From positions 1 to 49,347 of the forward strand of contig CAJBTU010000425.1 in NCBI GenBank assembly GCA_903958625.1: 49,347 bases of DNA, given 5' to 3'. A model generated the notes under the pieces. It was given only the letters and a program-made list of their open reading frames with translations. It ran no database searches and was not told the origin of the DNA. Source of the stretch: an uncultured Ignavibacteriota bacterium (lineage in GTDB: Bacteria; Bacteroidota; Ignavibacteria; UBA10030; UBA8401). The position numbers were made by a program, and so were the translations under genes. This document shows, one piece after another, positions 4,563-43,779 of the stretch; position 1 is the stretch's first letter; each line of letters begins with the position of its first letter.

Positions 4563-4676
4563 TGGTTCGACGCGGCACAACAACCATGTTCATCCTGAGC
4601 AAATGCCGATGTTGTTTATCGGCATGCGCCGAAGGATGAACTAAGATATTAATGTTGCGCCTTGCTCACCATGAAC
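4563..4676. repeat. Nested REP-like palindromic element
   Basis: Outer TGGTTCGAC-GC-[GGCACAACA...TGTTGCGCC]-TT-GCTCACCATGAAC. Inner (4588-4641, opposite orientation) GTTCATCCTGAGC-AA-[ATGCCGAT-7nt-ATCGGCAT]-GC-GCCGAAGGATGAAC. Lies between convergent genes. Confidence 0.75.
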
Positions 4677-17325: not shown

Positions 17326-17406
17326 TGCAACCCCAAATAGTTACAATAGTATAAAGAAATTATTTTCTTTGTTCAATTTCTTTCCTATATTTAGTTAATT
17401 CATTTA

Positions 17407-17479
<73 letters not shown>

Positions 17480-17483
17480 CAAG

Positions 17484-17729
17484 ATGTGTTTCGTATATAT
17501 TCTTCAAAGCATTAAATCCGGCAAATTCTATGTTGGTCATGCCTTGGATCTTCCAAAGAGGCTCAACCATCATAATAGCGGATATTCCAAGTCGACAAAA
17601 TCAGGTGTTCCGTGGGAAATCGTTCATACCGAAGAATACCAAACTCGATCTGATGCGATGAAGAGAGAATATGAAATTAAGGCAATGAAAAGCAGAACAT
17701 ACATCCTTCATCTGATAAAAAAGAATTAA
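17484..17729 (+). CDS. Small stand-alone GIY-YIG nuclease (81 aa)
   Basis: FVYILQS...FYVG, KRLNHHNSG, TKSGVPW, AMKREYEIK; starts 4 nt after the tRNA. Confidence 0.88.
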   Translation: MCFVYILQSIKSGKFYVGHALDLPKRLNHHNSGYSKSTKSGVPWEIVHTEEYQTRSDAMKREYEIKAMKSRTYILHLIKKN

Positions 17730-17730
17730 T

Positions 17731-17841
17731 AGCTGGGAGACCTTCCCGATGTCCCGGCAACGGGACATCGGGAAGGTCAGCGGTTGAATGTTTTTTTGTG
17801 AAATCCCGCTCTGCGGGGTTCGATCCCGCTACGGTCCACAA
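17731..17841 (+). repeat. Degenerate tRNA-Ala copy with palindrome insertions, ending in a 25-bp direct repeat of the tRNA 3' end
   Basis: AGCTGGGAGA + 18-bp GCAA-capped hairpin (17739-17778) + AGCGGTT + insert containing CCCGC-TCT-GCGGG + GGTTCGATCCCGCTACGGTCCACAA (17817-17841, identical to 17458-17482). Confidence 0.85.
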
Positions 17842-17871
17842 CGTTTTGATCATCAAATAAGAACTATTGTT

Positions 17872-17953
17872 AAGGTCAGCGGGTCCCTGCCCGTCCGGCC
17901 TGTAAGGAAATTTAAGGTTTACTTAACCAGGCAGGGATTCCTCATCGGTCGAC
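17872..17953 (+). repeat. Second degenerate tRNA 3'-half copy with an inverted-repeat insertion in the T-loop
   Basis: AGGTCAGCGG-GTC-[CCTGCC...GGCAGG]-GATTCCTCATCGGTCGAC versus tRNA AGGTCAGCGG-TTC-GATCCCGCTACGGTCCAC. Confidence 0.55.
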
Positions 17954-17958
17954 CTTCT

Positions 17959-19119
17959 ATGAGAGTACTTTCGATATCTGCTGCATTTTTTCTTCTTATT
18001 TCTTCGCTCCATTCTCAGGCAATTTCGTACGACACTGTTTCAAGCGAATCCATTGCCAAAGGCGTGACCTATACTTTTTATAAGAGTGCACTCCCGCAGG
18101 AAATTCATGTTGCTGAGATCGACCTCCGAAATCCGCAATTATCCATTGAAAGTGTGCGTCATAACGGATTGGTGACAACATCGGAGGAGGTCCGGAAGAA
18201 TTCGTCGGAGAGAAAAAACGCACTGGTCGCGATCAACGGAGATTTCTTTAGCTTCAAGGATAGCAGCCCGGTGAACAATCAGATAACAGGCTACGTTTCT
18301 GTCACAGGTTACTCATCTCCGCAAAAATCACAATTAGCAATTACTGCCGAAAAAAAACTGCTCATCGACGGATTTACATTTTCGGGAACGGTTCTCACAA
18401 AATCGAAATCGGTATTCACATTTGAACGGCTAAACAGTACGCGAACTCTCTCCGAGATCACATTCTATACCCGGTACCGCGGAACAACGACAAAAACGGA
18501 TTCTGGAGGAGTTGAAATAATTTTAAGACCGGTCAGCAAAAAAATTACTGCGCAAGATACGCTACGTTTTGTCGTTGCATCAGTTTCTACAATATCCGGA
18601 AATTCCCTCATCCCCGAAGGAGGCGGCGTACTATCCTTTGGGAGGTCGGACACTTCATTAAAATTCCTTTCGGCCTTTTCCCGCGGAGATACCGTCAGGA
18701 TCTACATGGATTACAAGCCAAAGACACATCCGGTTGCAACAAAAATTGCGCAGTTGATCGGCGGCTGGGGCAGGTTATTGGATAATGGAAAGAATCTTAC
18801 TGCGATAGCGGACACGAATGAAGGACTGACGGGAAAATTCACGGCTGTTCGGCACCCCAGAACATTTTTAGGAATCAACGCCGACACAACCAAGCTATAT
18901 CTTTGCATCGTCGACGGCCGTCAGGAAAAAAGTGTCGGAATGACATTTCCCGAAATGGCGCACTTCCTTCACTTCATTAATGTCACCAATGCCTTCAACT
19001 TTGATGGGGGCGGATCTTCAACAATGGTCATCCACGGAAAAGTGGTCAATTCACCTTCCGATGCTTCCGGCGAAAGGCCTGTTGCAAATTCTCTGCAGGT
19101 AGTGCAAGTCAATAATTGA
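17959..19119 (+). CDS. Secreted phosphodiester glycosidase (NAGPA-like) family protein
   Basis: AINGDFF, RHPRTFLG, NFDGGGSSTM, ERPVANSL. Start reassigned to ATG 17959, which gives a signal peptide; the track's extension runs through tRNA-derived repeats. Confidence 0.85.
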   Translation: MRVLSISAAFFLLISSLHSQAISYDTVSSESIAKGVTYTFYKSALPQEIHVAEIDLRNPQLSIESVRHNGLVTTSEEVRKNSSERKNALVAINGDFFSFKDSSPVNNQITGYVSVTGYSSPQKSQLAITAEKKLLIDGFTFSGTVLTKSKSVFTFERLNSTRTLSEITFYTRYRGTTTKTDSGGVEIILRPVSKKITAQDTLRFVVASVSTISGNSLIPEGGGVLSFGRSDTSLKFLSAFSRGDTVRIYMDYKPKTHPVATKIAQLIGGWGRLLDNGKNLTAIADTNEGLTGKFTAVRHPRTFLGINADTTKLYLCIVDGRQEKSVGMTFPEMAHFLHFINVTNAFNFDGGGSSTMVIHGKVVNSPSDASGERPVANSLQVVQVNN

Positions 19120-19122
19120 ATC

Positions 19123-21408
19123 TTATCTTAAGAGCAGGGCAAGTTGTGCCGGCCTTTTCTTTTTAGCCGCTTTCCTTTTCTCCGTAACGGACTGCAGATC
19201 GAGTTCTTCCTTCAATACCTCCATTGAGTATCCCAGGGGCTGCAGCAGTGTCTCCGCCGCTTCCAGCACCATCTCGGAGTATTTCTCCGCATCGTAGCCG
19301 TCATCCAACGCATACAACGCCAGCGGTTTCGCTTTCATCGGGTCTTTCTTTCCGGTTGAATCCGTAATGATATACTGAATGCTTTCCCCCGCCATCAATT
19401 GAACGCCCGCTTCCGCAAGAGTCTGCGACACGATGGCGCTGACGCTGTTGTTCTCATATTCAAACGGATCTTTCGAAATGCGGCGCCGGATCACCAGTTC
19501 AAACGGTGAAACATTCCCTTGTTTCAGATCATTGATGTATTGTTTCGTCACTTTCAGCACTTCCGGCACCAGCATGTTCACGCCGGCAATATCATCCGCG
19601 CCGGACAGCACTTTCAGCATCGCTTGCTGCGCTTTCTGAACGTACTTCGGCACATCTTTTCTCCGCACCTCAATTCCCCGTACCTTGAATTCATTGGTAT
19701 CATATTGACCAACATAGCGTGTTGCCGTCGGAATTTCTTCGTCCATTTTTGAGACGGGAAACAATATCCACTTATATATTCCTTCAACGGATATTTTGAT
19801 GCCTGTTCCCTCTTCGATCTTTTTGGCAAGCAAAGCATACTCTTCGTGTGTGGCACCCTGCTTCTTCAGCCAGACACAATCAATGATCGCGTGGATTAGT
19901 TCAAAACCATCCTGCTCGGCGATCTCCTTGGCGCGAAGCAGCGTATCACGTGCAAACGCGTTCACCGATTCATGCGCTTCTATCCTGCCGAGGCGCGATT
20001 TTTTAAAGCCGAGATAACCGAAGCAGGTTACCAGTATCCATTTCAACGCGGATTGTTTATTGTCGTACCTCTTCCGCACTTCTTCCGTTGGCGCATCCGC
20101 TCTCAGTTCCTTATACCGCGCCCGTTTTTTGATGATCGGATCCAATGTTGCCGGGACCAATCCTCTCCGTTTTTCGCAGATGCGGAAACCTATCTCGGGG
20201 ACAAGATGCCGGGAATCAGGACAGCAGGGACAATCCAGCGTTTCGGTGGAGATATTATTGTTTCTCATGATCGTCGGATACATCGAAGCAAAATCCAGTT
20301 CCGCCACCTGTTCGTGATATCCGATCTCCGGCATAAAGTGAAGTCCGCCCCTGTCCGACTTCAACAATGTTGTCAGCGATTTGAACGCCTCCTTGATCGG
20401 ACGCTTGTACGGAACAAGAACATTGTTCCTGTACGTCCACGATATCTGCATGGATGACAATGCTGAACCGATGCTCGTGCGCGCCTGCTGCTGCACACCT
20501 ATCTGCGACATTCGTGCAAGGTCATACAATCCGTCAAGATCCCCCTCATTGATAATGAATGAATTCTCCTTGTCCAGATGCCAGCGGCCGGAGAGGGCGA
20601 ACGTGCCGTCCCTCTGCTTTACTTGTCCATAGGAAAAATAGGTGATCGCTTTTGAGAACATGAATCCTGCACCCGCATCACGGTTAAGATAGAGCGGCAT
20701 GTTCAGTTCCGATGCGGTCTGCTGCAGCATCGGCAGCAATGTTGCATCGCCATACTCGGTCAGAATTACGTCCGGATCGTATTTGTAAAGGTAATAGTTT
20801 ATCTGATTGATCAGTTCCCGCGGCGATTCCTGCTGCAGTACGCTCTTTCTTCCCTCCACTTCTATTTCGATCTCCAGATAACGCTGATACTTCGGCGCCA
20901 GAAGTTTTGCCGAAGGAGAAAGTGTCATAACCGTCAGAGGCGGAACATTATACGTTTCCGCCTCCATTCTTTCAAGCAGATTCCACGACTTCAGAAGACC
21001 GTTCTCTATCGTATATTCTCCGTACGCCAGCGGAAATAACTGTGTCGTATAGTAGAACATCTGCACCGCTTTGATGTCGGCATTGTAGAATTGATAGAAC
21101 TTAAATTGTTTGGAAAGCGTCCTTACAGTCTTTTGAAGCAGGTTGGGATTGTGAACATGTACGGCATAAACGTCAACATCGTTATTGGAGAGCAGATCCA
21201 TCTTCGCCGTCTTTGTCATCGTCACTTGATACGGAAGACGAAGAAGGACTTCGCGAAGCGTGACCGCTTCCTGCTCCGAAATGTGCAGATAGAAGCAGGG
21301 GGCAAAAGGAAATGCTGTCTTATGCCGTTTCCCGTCGGCATCGATGATCCAGACCGTCATCCCGGTATCGTTCACATACGCGTCAAACAGCCATCCTTGC
21401 AGTGTCAT
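19123..21408 (-). CDS. Family B DNA polymerase, archaeal PolB2/Dpo2-like
   Basis: Motif A LDFASMYP, motif B KQSALKWILVTCFGYLG, variant motif C HAIIDCVW, KVRGIEVRRKD, CPCC...C insertion. ATGA overlap with the upstream gene. Confidence 0.88.
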   Translation of the reverse strand: MTLQGWLFDAYVNDTGMTVWIIDADGKRHKTAFPFAPCFYLHISEQEAVTLREVLLRLPYQVTMTKTAKMDLLSNNDVDVYAVHVHNPNLLQKTVRTLSKQFKFYQFYNADIKAVQMFYYTTQLFPLAYGEYTIENGLLKSWNLLERMEAETYNVPPLTVMTLSPSAKLLAPKYQRYLEIEIEVEGRKSVLQQESPRELINQINYYLYKYDPDVILTEYGDATLLPMLQQTASELNMPLYLNRDAGAGFMFSKAITYFSYGQVKQRDGTFALSGRWHLDKENSFIINEGDLDGLYDLARMSQIGVQQQARTSIGSALSSMQISWTYRNNVLVPYKRPIKEAFKSLTTLLKSDRGGLHFMPEIGYHEQVAELDFASMYPTIMRNNNISTETLDCPCCPDSRHLVPEIGFRICEKRRGLVPATLDPIIKKRARYKELRADAPTEEVRKRYDNKQSALKWILVTCFGYLGFKKSRLGRIEAHESVNAFARDTLLRAKEIAEQDGFELIHAIIDCVWLKKQGATHEEYALLAKKIEEGTGIKISVEGIYKWILFPVSKMDEEIPTATRYVGQYDTNEFKVRGIEVRRKDVPKYVQKAQQAMLKVLSGADDIAGVNMLVPEVLKVTKQYINDLKQGNVSPFELVIRRRISKDPFEYENNSVSAIVSQTLAEAGVQLMAGESIQYIITDSTGKKDPMKAKPLALYALDDGYDAEKYSEMVLEAAETLLQPLGYSMEVLKEELDLQSVTEKRKAAKKKRPAQLALLLR

Positions 21409-21665
21409 ATCTCCTCCCCGTAATTTCGTAAGCGTTCTTTCAGTTCGTGGAGTTCTCCAACGAGTTTGACCAGGACGGATAACGTGATCTTATCCATCGT
21501 GATCGGTGTCGTTTGGAACGCGATCGACGGAAGATTCCGTTTAGCAATGCGAAATATCTCATCGAAGTGCTCCTGCTGCTCTTTTCGGAGCGCCCGGCGG
21601 AAGTTTCCCCACCGTTCCCGTTCCTTGTCGATGAGCCTTGTTGCGGTCGCTATCAGTCTTCCCAT
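21405..21665 (-). CDS. 86-aa helical PolB2-associated protein (arCOG07300-like)
   Basis: MGRLIATATRLIDKERERWGNFRRALRKEQQEHFDEIF matches the recalled archaeal MGR...W..FRRALR..D...FD pattern; GAGG upstream of ATG 21665. Confidence 0.75.
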   Translation of the reverse strand: MGRLIATATRLIDKERERWGNFRRALRKEQQEHFDEIFRIAKRNLPSIAFQTTPITMDKITLSVLVKLVGELHELKERLRNYGEEI

Positions 21666-22254
21666 TTCTTCCTCGTCTGGCGGGTGAGTGGTGGTATTCT
21701 TTGTCGATCCTGTAAGTGACATCGCTGATCCCCTTGAATGCGTTGAAATACTCTTCCCGTTCTTTCAATTGAAAATGGAGCGGCGTTGAGACAAGCAGCG
21801 TGGAGATATTCTCCGTTTTCAGTTGATCGAATGTCTGTTTGATCCTTGCAAGGATGTCGTGAATATCCGGAATGGAAACTTGTTCATCGTCGATAAGGTC
21901 CAATAGTCCGAAGACCATCACTGTTTTTGCATTCGTCTTTTTCATGAATGCGGCCAAGCCGTCGGTGATTGCCACATCGACCTGATAGAATGTATAGCAC
22001 CGGCTGATGAATCCCCTCTGCATAAGTTCTTCCGGTTCAAGGCCTGCCGTCTTGAAGATGCCCGCAATAAAGAACGGATCGGTCGTATTCGCCGCATCAA
22101 CGATCACCACCGGTTCTTTCTTGCGCAGAAGTTCAGCGGCAACAAGCATAGCGGTATGATAGATGCCGTAATTGCCATGCAGAAAATTGATCGCCGGCGA
22201 CGATGTTTCCATTGCCAGTTGTATCGTTCTATATGATTGAATGACTGTTTCCAT
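21559..22254 (-). CDS. Inactivated RecA/RadA-superfamily ATPase (ImuA-like role)
   Basis: VVIVDAANTTDP, FISRCYTFYQ and strand-helix pattern of the RecA core; Walker A position reads HGNYGIYH with no GKT. Confidence 0.7.
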   Translation of the reverse strand: METVIQSYRTIQLAMETSSPAINFLHGNYGIYHTAMLVAAELLRKKEPVVIVDAANTTDPFFIAGIFKTAGLEPEELMQRGFISRCYTFYQVDVAITDGLAAFMKKTNAKTVMVFGLLDLIDDEQVSIPDIHDILARIKQTFDQLKTENISTLLVSTPLHFQLKEREEYFNAFKGISDVTYRIDKEYHHSPARRGRNGKTDSDRNKAHRQGTGTVGKLPPGAPKRAAGALR

Positions 22255-22307
22255 AAAGACAAAAGCCCGACAGCGCAGGACTTGTTCGTCCTTTCGCTAT
22301 CGGGCTT
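22254..22307 (-). terminator. Terminator-like hairpin between the leader ORF and the RecA-like gene
   Basis: AAGCCCGATAGCG-AA-AGGAC-GAACAA-GTCCT-G-CGCTGTCGGGCTT, then TTGTCTTT-ATG. Confidence 0.6.
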
Positions 22308-22330
22308 GAAGGTCTCAACACCCGTATACG

Positions 22331-22531
22331 TTAGATCACTTTTCTTAACTTATGCTTCGACCGAAATGAAACTTCTATATCCCCGACAACTTTTCCGGCC
22401 TCGCGCGGGAAATAAATCTGTATGCCGCCGTAATGGTCCTCCGGAGATCTCACGTTCAGGATGTCCAATATTTTATTGAGATACGAGTTGATCTTTTCCC
22501 GCTCTTCTATTGTATAATCACCGCTCGTCAT
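22331..22531 (-). CDS. 66-aa hypothetical leader protein
   Basis: ATG about 65 nt below the predicted promoter; purine-rich upstream sequence (GGAGAACAGGG); helix-then-strands pattern HYGGIQIYF...GKVVGDIEV. Confidence 0.55.
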   Translation of the reverse strand: MTSGDYTIEEREKINSYLNKILDILNVRSPEDHYGGIQIYFPREAGKVVGDIEVSFRSKHKLRKVI

Positions 22532-22581
22532 ATTCGCCCTGTTCTCCAGAATTTCACCGTAGTATTGCCGGTCAATTTTTG

Positions 22582-22632
22582 CTGTATAAATTTACACTGT
22601 ATAAATTTACAGTATTTTGAATAACTTGTCAA
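22582..22632 (-). promoter_or_regulatory. Sigma70 promoter overlapped by tandem SOS-box-like operators
   Basis: -35 TTGACA (22632-22627), N17, -10 TAAATT (22609-22604); 15-bp tandem repeat CTGTATAAATTTACA x2; box 22597-22612 is a perfect CTGT-N8-ACAG. Confidence 0.75.
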
Positions 22633-22750
22633 GTCTTTTTTTTACAAAATAATTTGTTTCAGTGACGATCCGACTGACTGAACAAGGAAAATGTTCGATG
22701 AAATATATTTCCTGAGAAATTTTATTTCATTTCATAGACGTAAAAACATC

Positions 22751-22781
22751 TTTGAAAATCACCGTTTCGTTCGTATATTTG
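22751..22781 (+). promoter_or_regulatory. Promoter of the tRNA-Ser/tRNA-Pro pair
   Basis: TTTG-N19-TATATTTG (Bacteroidota-like), also readable as TTGAAA-N16-TATATT. Confidence 0.5.
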
Positions 22782-22805
22782 GACTGCAATTAAGCAAAAA
22801 TCCAC

Positions 22806-22895
22806 GGAGAGGTGGGTGAGTGGCTTAAACCAGCGGTTTGCTAAACCGCCGTACGGGGTTAACCTGTACCGAGGGTTCAAATCCCTCCTTCTCCG
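22806..22895 (+). tRNA. tRNA-Ser(GCU)
   Basis: GGAGAGG acceptor, GCGGT-TTGCTAA-ACCGC anticodon arm, long variable arm, GGTTCAAATCC. Confidence 0.95.
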
Positions 22896-22906
22896 CAATA
22901 ATTGTT

Positions 22907-22981
22907 CGGGGTGTGGCTCAGCCCGGTTAGAGCGCGTGGTTCGGGACCACGAGGTCGGAGGTTCGAATCCTCTCACCCCGA
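22907..22981 (+). tRNA. tRNA-Pro(CGG)
   Basis: CGGGGTG/CACCCCG acceptor, CGTGG-TTCGGGA-CCACG anticodon arm, GGTTCGAATCC. Confidence 0.95.
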
Positions 22982-22994
22982 CAACTAAAAAAAG

Positions 22995-23020
22995 GGGACG
23001 TTCTTCAACGTCCCTTTTTT
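22995..23020 (+). terminator. Intrinsic terminator after the tRNA pair
   Basis: GGGACGTT-CTTC-AACGTCCC-TTTTTT, A-run on the other side. Confidence 0.85.
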
Positions 23021-23067
23021 ATTTCCCTTCCGGATTCGTATATTTGACACATTAGACAGAGGGCTCT

Positions 23068-24069
23068 ATGAAAAATCTCCGCGTTCTCGTACTCTTCATA
23101 CTTCCATTAATCCTCCCCGCCTGCGTTTCCATCGGTAAATTTGAAGAAATGCAGTCACACCGTGATGCGTTACAGATCTCCGTCGATTCACTGAAAAATG
23201 TCGTCGGATCCATGCAGTCACGGATGGAGAATTTAACGACGGATAATGCTCTTCTGAAAAATCAGAACAGCGAATATCAAAAACAAATCACTGACCTGCA
23301 GCATCAGACCGATACGCTGAAAGACCGCATCCGTACATTGGAGAACGATCTCACGATCGCAAATCAAAATTACGATCAGTCCAAAGCGAAGAATTCAGCC
23401 GAGATAAAAAAACTGCTGACAAATCTTGAGGCATTGCAAAAAGATGTCGCCACGCGCGAACAGAAATTAAAGGATTACGAGGAAGCGCTGGCAGTGCGTG
23501 ATTCCACCCTTGCCGCAATCCAGCGCGATCTGATCGGGCGCGAACAGCGGGTCGGCGACCTCGAGAAACGTCTGGCGGCACGTGATTCCGCATTGAATGC
23601 ATTGAAATCAAAATTGAACGATGCGTTGTTTGGATTTACGAACAGCGGACTGTCGATCACTATCGTAAATGGCCGCGTGTATGTATCGCTCTCCAACCAA
23701 CTGCTCTTTTCAACGGGAAAAACCGACATCGATAAGCACGGTAAAGATGCGCTGCTCGGCCTTGCACGCGTATTGAATACACAGGAAGACCTGAGCATCC
23801 TTGTTGAAGGCCATACGGACAAACAACCGGTCTCCAATCTTGGCGCGATAAAAGATAATTGGGATCTGAGCGTTATGCGTGCGACCGAAGTGGTCCGGTA
23901 TTTGGCGATAGAAGGAAAAGTTGAGCCAAAAAGGATTACGGCATCAGGACGTAGCGAATACTTCCCCATCGATCCCGCAAATTCGTCCGAAGCAAGAGCC
24001 AAGAACCGGCGTACGGAGATCATCCTGATCCCGAAGCTATCCGAGTTGTTTGAAATTTTGGAAAAATAA
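23068..24069 (+). CDS. Coiled-coil lipoprotein with C-terminal OmpA/MotB peptidoglycan-binding domain
   Basis: Lipobox LPAC, long heptad region, VEGHTD, NWDLSVMRA, RAKNRRTEI. Confidence 0.85.
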   Translation: MKNLRVLVLFILPLILPACVSIGKFEEMQSHRDALQISVDSLKNVVGSMQSRMENLTTDNALLKNQNSEYQKQITDLQHQTDTLKDRIRTLENDLTIANQNYDQSKAKNSAEIKKLLTNLEALQKDVATREQKLKDYEEALAVRDSTLAAIQRDLIGREQRVGDLEKRLAARDSALNALKSKLNDALFGFTNSGLSITIVNGRVYVSLSNQLLFSTGKTDIDKHGKDALLGLARVLNTQEDLSILVEGHTDKQPVSNLGAIKDNWDLSVMRATEVVRYLAIEGKVEPKRITASGRSEYFPIDPANSSEARAKNRRTEIILIPKLSELFEILEK

Positions 24070-24072
24070 TCG

Positions 24073-25047
24073 ATGAAACCGCTCATTGATGGAAAAAGCG
24101 TGACAGTTTTCTGTTGCGCTTTTTTATTTCTGTTCTATTCCTGTAGTGCGGTGAAAAATCTTGCCGCGAATGAAATGAATGTATTCTATTCTTTCGATCC
24201 CGAAATCCGCATCATGGTCAATTCGCCAAAAGAGATCGACCAGTCAAAACCTCCCCTGCTGATCGTATACGCCCTGCCGAACGGCAACACCATCGAAATG
24301 ACGGCAGGAAAAAAGATGAAGAGCGGCGACGATTGGCATTACGATATCCAGCATATTGCAGCGCAGACCCGGTTCCTGCGGAATACGCTGAAAGAGTATA
24401 CCATTCATATTGCATACCTGGAATCTGCTCAGAAAAGCTGGCCTTCGTGGAGAAAAAAATACAATGATGGTGAGATCGCTCGGATCGTAAAAAAGGTCCG
24501 GTCTCAGACCGGAAATCCCGTATCGGTCATTCTTTCGGGACACAGCGGAGGCGGAAGTTTCATCACAGGATTCATCAATGCCTATGATACGATTCCGGAT
24601 TATATTTCCCGCATTGCGTATCTTGATGCCAATTACAGTTACGATGACTCATTGGGCCATGGAATGAAACTGCTGCAATGGCTTCGTTCGGATTCAACTC
24701 ATCACTTATCCGTGCTCGCATACGATGACCGTGAAATATCATTGAATGGCAAAAAGGTCGTCTCACCGACCGGCGGAACATACCGCGCAACTCAACGAAT
24801 GGTCAAATATTTTCGTGAAGTGACGGATATTAAATCATTCCAGGATTCAATGATCATTGAATATGAATGCTGGCATCATCGGTCGCGTTTTCTTGTCCAT
24901 TCAAATCCGGATACTCTCATTCTCCACACGGTACTGGTCGAAAAAAACGGATTGATCCATTCTGTATTGTTCAACACGGTGTTCGAAGAGAGGGAATATA
25001 CATTCTTCGGCGATCGTGCATATACAAACTTTATCAGCGGGGAATAA
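24073..25047 (+). CDS. Putative lipoprotein with alpha/beta-hydrolase fold
   Basis: Lipobox-like FYSC; nucleophile elbow LSGHSGGG. Confidence 0.6.
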   Translation: MKPLIDGKSVTVFCCAFLFLFYSCSAVKNLAANEMNVFYSFDPEIRIMVNSPKEIDQSKPPLLIVYALPNGNTIEMTAGKKMKSGDDWHYDIQHIAAQTRFLRNTLKEYTIHIAYLESAQKSWPSWRKKYNDGEIARIVKKVRSQTGNPVSVILSGHSGGGSFITGFINAYDTIPDYISRIAYLDANYSYDDSLGHGMKLLQWLRSDSTHHLSVLAYDDREISLNGKKVVSPTGGTYRATQRMVKYFREVTDIKSFQDSMIIEYECWHHRSRFLVHSNPDTLILHTVLVEKNGLIHSVLFNTVFEEREYTFFGDRAYTNFISGE

Positions 25048-26399
25048 TGCAGCAGGAATCTCTAAAACGCGATCTCTCTTTCACCCAGGCCGTAGCGCTC
25101 AATATGATCGACATGGTCGGCATCGGTCCGTTCGTTGTGCTCCCGCTTGTCATCGGCATTATGGGAGGTCCTCAGCATATCGCCGCCTGGATTGCCGGAG
25201 CAATTCTGGCACTGATCGACGGATTCATCTGGGCGGAATTTGGTGCAGCAATGCCGAAGGCCGGCGGAAGTTATGTTTTTCTTCGTGAATCGTTCGGTCC
25301 GCGATGGGGAAAACTGATGTCCTTCCTCTTTATCTGGCAAACAATGATTCAGGCGCCGCTTGTGATTGCTTCCGGATCGATCGGTTTTGCTCAATATCTC
25401 TCCTATCTTCTCCCACTCGACGATGTCACACGGCGCGTTGCTTCCGGCACATTAGTTATCGTCTTAACATTTATTTTATACCGTAAGATCTCCACCATCG
25501 GAAAGATCTCCGTTGCATTGTGGATCGGCGTTATGGGAACAATGGCGTGGTTCATCATCGGCGGACTTTCTCATTTCGACCCGAAACTGGCATTTAGTTA
25601 TCCGGATGGAGCATGGGATTTCACGTGGGCATTTTGGGTTGCGCTTGGTCAAGGGACGGTAAAAACAATGTATTCATATCTCGGCTATTATAATGTGAAT
25701 CATCTTGGCGGCGAGATCAAGAATCCCGAAAAGAATATCCCCCGTGCAATTTTTATTTCGATTATCGGTATCGCATTTATTTATCTTGCAATGCAGTTTG
25801 CGGTCATCGGCGTCATACCATGGCAGGAAGCAAAAGATTCACAATTTATTGTCAGCACGCTCATCGAACGGCTGTACGGAACTGCAGCTGCGGCCGTTGC
25901 AACAGTGCTCGTTCTTTGGATCGCGTTTGCTTCGTTGTTCGCAGTGATGCTGGGATATTCAAGAATTCCATATGCAGCGGCATTGGACGGAAATTTCTTT
26001 TCCGTTATGGGAAAAATTCATCCGACCAAAAAATTTCCGCACATTTCTTTATTATGGCTTGGAGGTGCGGCTTTTGTCTTCAGTCTGTTGTTCCGGTTGA
26101 GTGATGTGATCAGCGCGATACTTGCAATGAGAATACTTGTTCAATTCATCGGCGGTGCGGTTGGGGTTATGATACTGAGGAATCGAATCGGCAAAGAGCA
26201 TCTCCCCTTCAAGATGTGGTTGTATCCACTTCCTGCATTGATCGCCATTGTTCTCTGGTTCTCCATTATGCTCTCAACGGGATGGAAATTTGCACTTTCA
26301 GGATTAGGGATGACGCTGCTGGGAATAATTGTCTATTTCATCAGAGAACAACTACAAAAAAAAATTGATTTCCCATCAGTGCTAAGAAAGAATTTATGA
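25047..26399 (+). CDS. APC-superfamily amino acid permease
   Basis: MIDMVGIGPF, AEFGAAMPKAGGSY, GEIKNPEKNIPRA, about 12 TMs; start at the TAATG overlap. Confidence 0.9.
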   Translation: MQQESLKRDLSFTQAVALNMIDMVGIGPFVVLPLVIGIMGGPQHIAAWIAGAILALIDGFIWAEFGAAMPKAGGSYVFLRESFGPRWGKLMSFLFIWQTMIQAPLVIASGSIGFAQYLSYLLPLDDVTRRVASGTLVIVLTFILYRKISTIGKISVALWIGVMGTMAWFIIGGLSHFDPKLAFSYPDGAWDFTWAFWVALGQGTVKTMYSYLGYYNVNHLGGEIKNPEKNIPRAIFISIIGIAFIYLAMQFAVIGVIPWQEAKDSQFIVSTLIERLYGTAAAAVATVLVLWIAFASLFAVMLGYSRIPYAAALDGNFFSVMGKIHPTKKFPHISLLWLGGAAFVFSLLFRLSDVISAILAMRILVQFIGGAVGVMILRNRIGKEHLPFKMWLYPLPALIAIVLWFSIMLSTGWKFALSGLGMTLLGIIVYFIREQLQKKIDFPSVLRKNL

Positions 26400-43727: not shown

Positions 43728-43779
43728 AGATGCTTCGACGCGTCCCGATTGTAAAACATCGGGACTTGCTCAGCATGAC
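43728..43779. repeat. REP-like palindromic element
   Basis: AGATGCTTCGAC-GC-[GTCCCGAT-8nt-ATCGGGAC]-TT-GCTCAGCATGAC. Confidence 0.75.

Follow-up and report, generated by a model that had tools for sequence, protein, structure and literature searches.

The window analyzed here is a DNA stretch of 49,347 nucleotides (nt) from an uncultured Ignavibacteriota bacterium (contig CAJBTU010000425.1), and our subject is a small cassette lodged at its alanine tRNA gene, tRNA-Ala(GGC). The cassette combines an open reading frame (ORF) for a minimal GIY-YIG nuclease with pseudo-tRNAs, that is, broken copies of the same tRNA whose arms are interrupted or replaced by palindromes (Table 1). Throughout, genomes are labeled G (G000 is the window's own), fetched loci L, contigs of the window's genome C, and sequencing runs X. 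The nuclease ATG lies 4 nt 3' of tRNA-Ala, and tRNA sequence restarts, at tRNA position 14, 2 bases after the nuclease stop codon (TAA, 17727-17729); in G003, G018, and G007, too, the stop codon directly adjoins A14. The slot of the anticodon arm is occupied by a hairpin with an outer core of TCCCGATG/CATCGGGA (17744-17751 and 17766-17773), inside which a second palindrome, TCCCG-GCAA-CGGGA, is nested (17752-17765). Within the T-loop filler of this pseudo-tRNA 2, CCCGC-TCT-GCGGG can alternatively be read as the 3' strand of one T-stem and, after it, the 5' strand of another T-arm, which is partial. Thirty-five nt (17782-17816) are polymorphic: one contig of the DNA run X8 joins 17781 to 17817, and G007 is without the segment. 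The unit measures about 360 base pairs (bp), and the only ORF between its 25-bp direct repeats is the 246-bp nuclease gene. Right after the decayed 3' end of the last copy come TTCT and the ATG of a gene of the NAGPA type, together at 17955-17961. Positions 17731-17953 are two stacked, dead partial copies of tRNA-Ala(GGC), part of a small selfish cassette in that tRNA gene.

Table 1. Features of the cassette locus and of one dispersed hairpin in the window.
Feature	Position	Strand	Basis or remark
Upstream region of tRNA-Ala, probable promoter	17350..17406	+	2 differences from G007; 82-96% conserved in the genus
tRNA-Ala(GGC), intact, rebuilt functional copy	17407..17480	+	ARAGORN; Rfam RF00005, 59.6 bits
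GIY-YIG nuclease gene, 81 amino acids, single domain	17484..17729	+	Pfam PF01541, E 1.3e-16
Pseudo-tRNA 2, D-loop/D-stem piece AGCTGGGAGA = tRNA 14-23	17731..17740	+	Exact 10-mer match
Hairpin in the anticodon-arm slot, perfect 18-bp stem with GCAA loop	17739..17778	+	Stem search, folding
Pseudo-tRNA 2, variable loop and 5' T-stem piece AGGTCAGCGGTT = tRNA 44-55	17774..17785	+	Exact 12-mer match
Filler in the T-loop of pseudo-tRNA 2: T7 run, second ATCCCGCT, CCCGC-TCT-GCGGG (17805-17817)	17786..17816	+	Sequence; absent from G007
25-bp direct repeat of the tRNA 3' end (T-arm and 3' acceptor strand), = 17458-17482	17817..17841	+	Exact match
Spacer (30 nt) between pseudo-tRNA 2 and pseudo-tRNA 3	17842..17871	+	3 changes from G007, otherwise conserved
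Pseudo-tRNA 3 start, AAGGTCAGCGG-GTC = tRNA 43-56, T54 to G	17872..17885	+	Identical in G007
50-nt insert bounded by CCTGCC...GGCAGG palindrome, exactly between C56 and G57 of pseudo-tRNA 3	17886..17935	+	Sequence
Decayed original 3' end of the resident tRNA-Ala, 13/18 positions matching	17936..17954	+	Junction synteny with G010, G012
NAGPA-type phosphodiester glycosidase gene, ancestral immediate downstream neighbor of the tRNA	17959..19119	+	Pfam PF09992, E 7.7e-34; empty-site synteny
Dispersed solo hairpin core GTCCCGAT-loop-ATCGGGAC in a frame resembling repetitive extragenic palindromes (frame region 43734-43778)	43742..43765	.	Genome frame search

An earlier note on this DNA had listed five items here, namely the resumption of the D-loop after the nuclease gene, an 18-bp stem with a GCAA loop, the resumption of the tRNA at its variable loop, CCCGC-TCT-GCGGG ahead of the duplicated T-arm, and CCTGCC...GGCAGG in the last copy, and all five are present where it had placed them. 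The role of chance was assessed by scoring collinear chains of exact matches to the tRNA against 2,000 dinucleotide shuffles. Pseudo-tRNA 2 scores 33, a value that no shuffle reaches (maximum, 17; 0/2,000). Leaving out the 25-bp repeat, its score is 30 (shuffle maximum, 16; 0/2,000), so that the resemblance outside the repeat, which the earlier note had proposed to compare with shuffled controls, beats 2,000 of 2,000 of them. Copy 3 by itself is marginal, its score of 10 being reached in 29 of the 2,000 shuffles. It was accepted despite this because its end, together with TTCT-ATG, matches the junction between tRNA end and NAGPA start at the empty sites of G010 and G012, which read ...CTACGGTCCAC-TT(C)TT-ATGAG; the window has CATCGGTCGACC-TTCT-ATGAGA. 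This match implies that the original 3' end of the resident tRNA survives in copy 3, having been displaced rightward, and the working tRNA-Ala on the left has a replaced 3' part. Inserts of the copy-3 type occur at the same tRNA position in L103 and L030. We also considered the loop of this insert as a fragment of signal recognition particle (SRP) RNA (CCTGCC-GTCCGG) and dropped the idea, as the local alignment score of 16 was reached by 176 of 2,000 shuffles.

The nuclease matches its Pfam family with 61 bits against a cut-off of 22.6, which places it in the GIY-YIG superfamily. Residues Y5, Y16, G18, R26, H30, N31, and E62 are invariant or nearly so among 22 family members, and a ratio of nonsynonymous to synonymous divergence (dN/dS) of 0.13-0.16 indicates purifying selection on the ORF. 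Its 81 amino acids make up the catalytic domain alone, and the long-duplex DNA-binding domain that characterizes Seg-type enzymes is absent. Among solved structures, the nearest are those of the UPF0213 proteins BH0048 and EF2693 (1zg2, E 1e-8; 1ywl, E 2e-7); matches to SLX1 are weak, and a plasmid database returned Bacillus subtilis yazA and Listeria homologues. Judging from identities of about 32-37%, the window nuclease would be a sister group, not an orthologue, of UPF0213/YazA/YhbQ. These proteins are its best sequence matches, similar over the whole domain and alike in size and motif order, and differ in being encoded by single-copy, housekeeping-looking genes with no assigned function. 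The survey of Dunin-Horkawicz et al. (2006) assigned stand-alone domains of this kind to a "bacterial Slx1-like" cluster, and it reports no linkage to tRNA or hairpins (PMC1564403).

The same tRNA gene shows the cassette in several states among congeners. The layout of the window is common to six congeneric genomes. The closest homologues of the nuclease at this tRNA are those of G007, G018, G003, G015, and G002 (89, 75, 71, 60, and 57% amino acid identity, respectively). All five have a pseudo-tRNA behind the nuclease gene, and G003 and G015 also have one in front of it. The D-arm and the anticodon slot are kept in G007, G018, G003, and G002, in the order GAGCG, TCCCGATG-(inner part)-CATCGGGA, AGGTCAGCGGTTC, an insert or none, and GATCCCGCTACGGTCCAC, with inner parts that vary among congeners (CGAAG, CAAAG, TCCCATTGGGA, TCCCGGCATCGGGA); the copies of G015 start at tRNA position 43/44 and are without the anticodon-slot hairpin. 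In G003, the ORF has the hairpin on either side, and in G018, the hairpin lies around the ORF. Clean empty sites exist in G019, G010, G014, and G012, where the NAGPA gene begins 5-230 nt after the tRNA and pseudo-copies are absent. Intermediate conditions include three tandem, gene-less 3' pseudo-halves in G004, gene-less decaying pseudo-tRNA relics in G017 and G006, ORF pseudogenes in G007 (premature stop) and G009, and, in G008, a 5' pseudo-copy (positions 1-58, with TCCCGATGCTTCGCATCGGGA) that separates the promoter from the real tRNA. Thus, within a single genus, the site at tRNA-Ala(GGC) exists in intact, pseudogenized, gene-less, and empty forms, as is typical of homing genes.

The association extends far beyond this genus. 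Nuclease homologues are present in 37 of 41 genomes of the order, with 1-10 each, often in tandem with a period of 300-400 bp, and a same-strand tRNA lies within about 400 nt at 29 of the 32 fetched relatives' loci. A scan of species genomes, based on 5 close sequences (the 22-sequence alignment was too diverse), yielded 80 further loci from Ignavibacteriota, Bacteroidota, Cloacimonadota, Zixibacteria, Fidelibacterota, Thermodesulfobacteriota, the candidate phyla radiation (CPR), and other phyla. Sixty-four of these have at least 300 nt of flank to either side; a same-strand tRNA is located within 300 nt in 49 of the 64 and an opposite-strand one in none (0/64). Nearly all scanned loci are flanked by collinear tRNA fragments, and a mirror layout (5' pseudo-copy, ORF, real tRNA) was found as well. 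Structures comparable to those of the window are present at many other loci, with 160 pseudo-tRNA fragments from about 100 loci. The earlier note had proposed that palindromes enter tRNAs repeatedly at specific positions, and the fragments bear this out: in anticodon-anchored numbering, their ends pile up at 26/27 (29 fragments), 49 (12), and 56 (11) and their starts at 44 (30) and 57/58 (22), the breakpoints 26|44 and 56|57 being fixed in the pseudo-copies. On the nuclease tree, the tRNA label changes 33 times, compared with 52.5 times for shuffled labels, and some clades mix phyla; nuclease clades are biased toward a tRNA type and cross phyla.

The pattern also reaches another kind of gene. 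In the window's genome, tRNA-Ala(CGC) is followed by the SRP RNA gene (RF00169, 66.7 bits), and a paralogue of the nuclease gene (L002:1256-1900 = C64:3159-3815) lies some 15 nt beyond the latter. Downstream of this paralogue stands a mutated SRP RNA duplicate in which the conserved GGAAGGAAGCA loop region is rewritten and an extra GCCCTACGGGTCGTAGA is inserted. The SRP RNA locus is the tRNA pattern repeated at another structured-RNA gene. The tRNA-Pro(GGG) of the window's genome, a frequent host elsewhere, is empty and without a pseudo-copy, and a 95-nt "tRNA-Lys" called by ARAGORN on C328, considered as a tRNA with an insert, was judged by eye to be a false call. A third paralogue (L003:1700-2200 = C422) is situated about 400 nt downstream of tRNA-Asn, with two CGTCCCG..CGGGACG hairpins and GC-rich repeats in between; tRNA-Asn fragments were not detected at that locus. 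A fourth small GIY-YIG gene (L146:1440-1830 = C3:3060-3450) belongs to a different subfamily, 32% identical to the window protein, and lies amid ABC-transporter-like genes with no tRNA nearby, flanked by GC-rich hairpins that include GTCCCAT-GGA-ATGGGAC. As for a vehicle, the single IMG/VR match was a longer UPF0213-like gene that is not adjacent to a tRNA and is not this cassette, and the plasmid database, which gave YazA-like genes only, offered no plasmid carrier.

The hairpin of the anticodon slot is a single conserved module. We compared 30 distinct examples from Ala, Arg, Asp, Leu, Lys, Met, and Val tRNAs, covering 9 anticodon identities, in which the core TCCCG(AT)...(AT)CGGGA takes the place of the anticodon arm (positions 27-43). 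Pairs 1-5 are T/C-CCCG : CGGG-A/G in 30/30, pair 6 covaries (A-T in 20, T-A in 5, C-G in 5), and pair 7 is Watson-Crick in 26/30, with loops of 3-7 nt. G-T pairs are absent from the 210 pairs at positions 1-7. Whole hairpins recur as exact reverse complements: L077 and L112 show this among the copies of a single locus, and CGAAG and CTTCG show it between congeners. The absence of wobble pairs and the occurrence of loops in both orientations point to a role of the hairpin at the DNA level. Larger hairpins, in the window and elsewhere, can harbor small TCCC(G)..(C)GGGA hairpins in their loops. At some Ser and Pro loci, the hairpin lies within the anticodon loop or replaces only half of the arm (L016, L129, L138), and T-loop inserts are often double hairpins of the form T-N5-loop-N5-A, with CCTGC..GCAGG types recurring at the same position.

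Conservation and strain variation add to this picture. Between G000 and G018/G003, the proportion of synonymous differences is 0.65-0.85, i.e., synonymous sites are saturated, and the outer arms TCCCGATG/CATCGGGA as well as the flanking tRNA-derived pieces are identical. We take this as selection on the hairpin because no functional template exists from which the hairpin could be gene converted. Between G000 and G007 (synonymous divergence, 0.31), the extended arms of copy 3, TCCCTGCC and GGCAGGGA, differ at 0/16 positions and the loop at 10/38. The 18-bp stem of the earlier note is perfect in this assembly but strain specific, since other strains have a 13-bp core: in this assembly, 17741 changed from G to C and 17743 from G to T (GAGCG to GACCT), lengthening the palindrome from 13 to 18 bp, and runs X5, X6, X7, and X8 (including a metatranscriptome contig) have G at both positions, the canonical GAGCG. 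That both substitutions created complementarity hints at correction within an extruded DNA hairpin. The earlier note had also suspected scars of the neighboring nuclease. The structures do always accompany this nuclease family, but they are not random scars, as the same TCCCG...CGGGA core appears across at least 9 tRNA identities and many phyla. The hairpin is very probably a module that belongs to the cassette.

A biochemical precedent for such a pair of gene and hairpin comes from Neisseria meningitidis, and hairpin-partnered minimal GIY-YIG nucleases (Ssn-like) were described biochemically only in 2025 (PMC11893778). Chenal et al. (Nat Commun 2025) reported that SsnA, a 94-amino-acid single-domain GIY-YIG protein of cd10448, binds NTS, a hairpin repeat (CGTCATTCCCGCGMAVGCGGGAATCYRG), exclusively in single-stranded DNA, cleaves a few nt 5' of this hairpin, and ignores duplex DNA and RNA; the ssnA gene is typically flanked by the NTS repeat, and the authors likened the hairpin-gene-hairpin layout to an insertion sequence (PMC11893778). 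The two systems share minimal single-domain proteins of about 80-95 amino acids and a GC-rich hairpin repeat that flanks the gene and is scattered in the genome. The hairpin cores are also alike, ATTCCCGCG..CGCGGGAAT in NTS and TCCCG(AT)..(AT)CGGGA here, and GTCATCCCGCGAAGCGGGAT of the Gly-tRNA locus L027 is almost identical to NTS. They differ in that the hairpin here occupies the anticodon-arm slot of a duplicated tRNA, while tRNA is never mentioned in the Ssn paper (0 occurrences, PMC11893778). They also differ in that our nuclease is nearest to UPF0213/YazA, and single-stranded DNA cleavage would apply to it by analogy only.

By this analogy, we propose, with a probability of about 0.6, that the hairpin is the docking site of the nuclease in single-stranded DNA and that the tRNA-derived repeats are recombination arms; the narrower statement that the hairpin is the site of this nuclease seems slightly more probable than not. 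The hairpin, extruded in single-stranded DNA, would be the putative docking and cleavage site, by analogy with the Ssn nucleases and their NTS/SRM hairpins. Nicks beside it would then provoke recombination among the tRNA-derived direct repeats, with the stretches 14-26 and 44-73 that the intact tRNA and the pseudo-tRNA share as arms. Such recombination could produce tandem arrays as well as precise excision restoring an empty site. After DNA transfer, the intact tRNA and the pseudo-tRNA might serve as portable homology arms for entry into a naive tRNA gene. A functional tRNA would always be rebuilt on one side, and the displaced pieces would decay and gather further palindromes. Repeated entry into the rebuilt tRNA would stack older remnants rightward, as copies 2 and 3 may be.

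Several points weigh against this proposal. The putative partnership of nuclease and hairpin in this family is drawn by analogy with the Ssn precedent, and the nearest named relatives of the protein appear, from sequence, to be of the UPF0213/YazA type and not demonstrably of the Ssn clade cd10448. The published SRM pattern gave 11 random-looking matches genome-wide, none at these hairpins, and only the TCCCG/CGGGA core resembles NTS. An intact tRNA lies beside the nuclease, and an element that cuts its target would have to spare its own host copy. The identity of the tRNA-derived pieces could come from gene conversion by the neighboring tRNA rather than from selection. Hairpin counts and GIY-YIG gene counts per genome show no correlation, and the association of presence and absence is weak (p about 0.04, hand-computed hypergeometric). 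Finally, the genome has three matches to Y1 transposases, which could spread hairpins resembling repetitive extragenic palindromes (REP).

Homing in duplex DNA is the first alternative to be weighed. Under this explanation, the nuclease cuts the cassette-free tRNA gene and repair copies the cassette in, the swap of the anticodon arm and the T-loop inserts being the changes that confer immunity. The presence or absence of the cassette at one site in congeners, with clean empty sites, would suit such a process, as would nuclease clades that are faithful to a tRNA type while crossing phyla and alterations confined to two fixed tRNA positions. A known counterpart is SegB of phages T4 and T6, which is larger, includes a DNA-binding part, and cuts duplex DNA; to our knowledge, it has neither a hairpin partner nor hairpin-substituted pseudo-tRNAs. 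Shared with SegB are a GIY-YIG gene wedged among tRNA genes, selfish spread, and a link to segmental amplification of tRNA regions, although SegB is a phage enzyme and the cassette here is chromosomal. SegB is described as a GIY-YIG homing endonuclease of the free-standing kind, encoded within a cluster of tRNA genes (PMC2330249; PMC13096335). Nevertheless, the protein of the window has the catalytic domain and no domain for binding long duplex DNA, and the adjoining intact tRNA would stay cleavable. Immunity, moreover, requires mere disruption of the site, not one conserved hairpin common to 9 tRNA identities, and the same hairpin also occurs far from tRNA genes. We consider duplex homing unlikely.

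These distant copies are numerous. In the window's genome, TCCCG-N3-30-CGGGA occurs 291 times, compared with 104-123 in Markov simulations (about 110 expected), and in perfect stems of 8 bp or more, no other non-A-rich 5-mer is as common as TCCCG (40/1,153). At least part of the copies sit in REP-like frames, TTCGRYGC-palindrome-TTGCTCA(C/G)CAT, of which the genome has 18 or more; 10 enclose GTCCCGAT..ATCGGGAC and the rest other palindromes. In G018, G015, and G004, the T-loop of the Ala pseudo-tRNAs has one such cargo, TGCCGAT..ATCGGCA, as its first hairpin, and at 4566-4665 of the window, a nested REP-like copy contains an inner inverted frame with the same cargo. Among the relatives, TCCCGAT-N3-12-ATCGGGA is present in 37/41 with 1-52 copies, while a reversed control pattern gave 0 matches throughout. 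Dispersal amounts to tens of hairpins per genome, not hundreds, and dispersed copies are a trait held in common with Ssn. A solo pseudo-tRNA relic that bears the same hairpin, GAGCG-TCCCGATGCGAAGCATCGGGA-AGGTGATAGGTTC-TGCCGAC..., lies at C392:13650-13740 with no GIY-YIG gene nearby and a REP-like frame about 230 nt away.

Such dispersal bears on a second alternative, in which the pseudo-tRNAs are passive debris: tandem tRNA duplications colonized by REP-like palindromes that another enzyme, e.g., a Y1 transposase, spreads, with the nuclease as a mere neighbor. REPs and bacterial interspersed mosaic elements (BIMEs) with RAYT Y1 transposases, like IS200/IS605 elements, are dispersed, nested extragenic palindromes recognized as single-strand hairpins by a small enzyme encoded nearby. 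The Ssn paper also discusses these elements (PMC11893778). The likeness to the present case lies in the dispersed, nested palindromes and the small enzyme gene close by; the differences are that the enzyme here is a hydrolytic GIY-YIG protein, not a Y1 transposase able to rejoin DNA, and that the master copies lie inside duplicated tRNA genes. A hairpin core dispersed in REP-like frames and nested in other palindromes, the Y1 genes of this genome, and the uncorrelated counts of hairpin and nuclease would all be accommodated by passive colonization. It would leave unaccounted for that the hairpin sits exactly in the 27-43 slot across unrelated phyla and tRNA types, always beside this nuclease family, that empty tRNA sites are free of pseudo-copies, and that the hairpin arms are conserved where neutral sites are saturated. 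Furthermore, the two strong Y1 genes (C195, C108) are without a REP-like frame within 1.5 kb; a weak third match has one isolated left-half motif nearby, and no complete frame or hairpin of this family was found within 1.5 kb of any of the three, contrary to the REP/RAYT arrangement. Passive debris is, in our estimation, quite unlikely.

The cassette is transcribed. A 384-nt contig of the metatranscriptome run X5, from the same lake system, covers 17502-17885, running from the ORF through the hairpin and filler into the first part of copy 3. Its end at 17885 was considered as an RNA 3' end and discarded, since a DNA contig of the same study stops at 17892, which indicates an assembly break at the palindrome. 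Upstream of tRNA-Ala, TATATTTAG (17386-17394) resembles the -7 box of the Bacteroidota type. Sigma-70-type promoters and intrinsic terminators were not predicted between 17350 and the NAGPA gene, and the hairpin itself was rejected as an intrinsic terminator, as no terminator-like site was predicted there and the RNA contig reads through it. Since the unit contains neither promoter nor terminator, the ORF most likely rides on the tRNA transcript, and transcription probably continues toward NAGPA. In cassette-free relatives (loci L037 and L049), 5-6 nt separate the tRNA-Ala 3' end from the start of the NAGPA gene, so that NAGPA is probably expressed from the tRNA promoter; the cassette sits in this tight junction without adding a terminator. 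Neighboring genes are covered patchily by X5, with no contigs over 19-26 kb, a region that the DNA run of the same study covers evenly. The lack of X5 contigs over the PolB2 operon region (window 19000-26000) would fit an operon that is switched off in this sample.

Transcription leads to a third alternative, that the hairpin-bearing pseudo-tRNA is a working RNA, be it a guide, a decoy, or an antitoxin, as the earlier note had suggested, or a processing or stability signal at the mRNA 3' end. The pseudo-tRNA is co-transcribed with the ORF, folds very stably (-93.9 kcal/mol, z -4.8), follows a stop codon that abuts it at a fixed A14, and belongs to a unit without a terminator, all of which would suit such a role. 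Nevertheless, the 5' acceptor strand, and with it an acceptor stem, is missing from the pseudo-copies beside the ORF. ARAGORN and Rfam (E up to 10) call only 17407-17480 and nothing tRNA-like in 17731-17953, with chance-level Rfam matches only over the hairpin. The lack of wobble pairs (0/210) and the loops in both orientations speak against an RNA function as well, and gene-less arrays and solo hairpins exist. In addition, N. meningitidis SsnA does not bind RNA (PMC11893778). The tRNA-mimic proposal thus finds no support, and a working RNA of any kind is improbable.

Genomic islands carried by integrases insert into tRNA genes and restore the 3' end, and the cassette resembles them in its rebuilt functional tRNA and in the repeat of the tRNA 3' end at its far border. 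That the 25-bp repeats, which as direct repeats of the tRNA 3' end flank the insert, are integrase attachment sites bordering a degraded integrative island is already contradicted and hardly credible, because there is no integrase or other recombinase gene, the sole gene of the roughly 360-bp unit being the nuclease ORF, because the duplicated D-arm and variable-loop pieces and the fixed slot with a hairpin in place of the anticodon arm would be left unexplained, and because the same layout occurs with 5' duplications (the mirror type) and at the SRP RNA gene.

Beyond the docking-site proposal, we would only tentatively, and with more doubt than conviction, suggest that the hairpin-tagged pseudo-tRNA is no debris and that it and a single-strand GIY-YIG nuclease reduced to its catalytic domain form a two-part mobile element of a new class. 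The hairpin would be the handle for the enzyme, and the tRNA-derived flanks would be interchangeable arms that choose the structured-RNA target (tRNA genes of many identities and, in the same genome, the SRP RNA gene). Solo hairpins would be non-autonomous offspring, and spread across phyla would proceed without a transposase, an integrase, or an intron. Full-text literature searches found no description of tRNA-nested GIY-YIG cassettes in bacteria; to judge from the searchable literature, the nesting of a GIY-YIG gene and hairpin cassette in tRNA genes appears not to have been described.

In Bacteroidota, Ignavibacteriota, Cloacimonadota, CPR, and other phyla, it is common for a small GIY-YIG gene to lie next to a tRNA gene, a feature hitherto unaccounted for, and the broken tRNA copies beside such genes confuse tRNA annotation. 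If the hairpin is the single-stranded DNA site of the nuclease, minimal Ssn-like GIY-YIG nucleases would gain a context, that of a selfish element living in essential RNA genes without destroying them. If true, this would also offer a testable route for the duplication, rearrangement, and exchange of tRNA genes between phyla, and the family would constitute a natural panel of small single-stranded DNA nucleases with varied hairpin specificities that may serve as tool enzymes.

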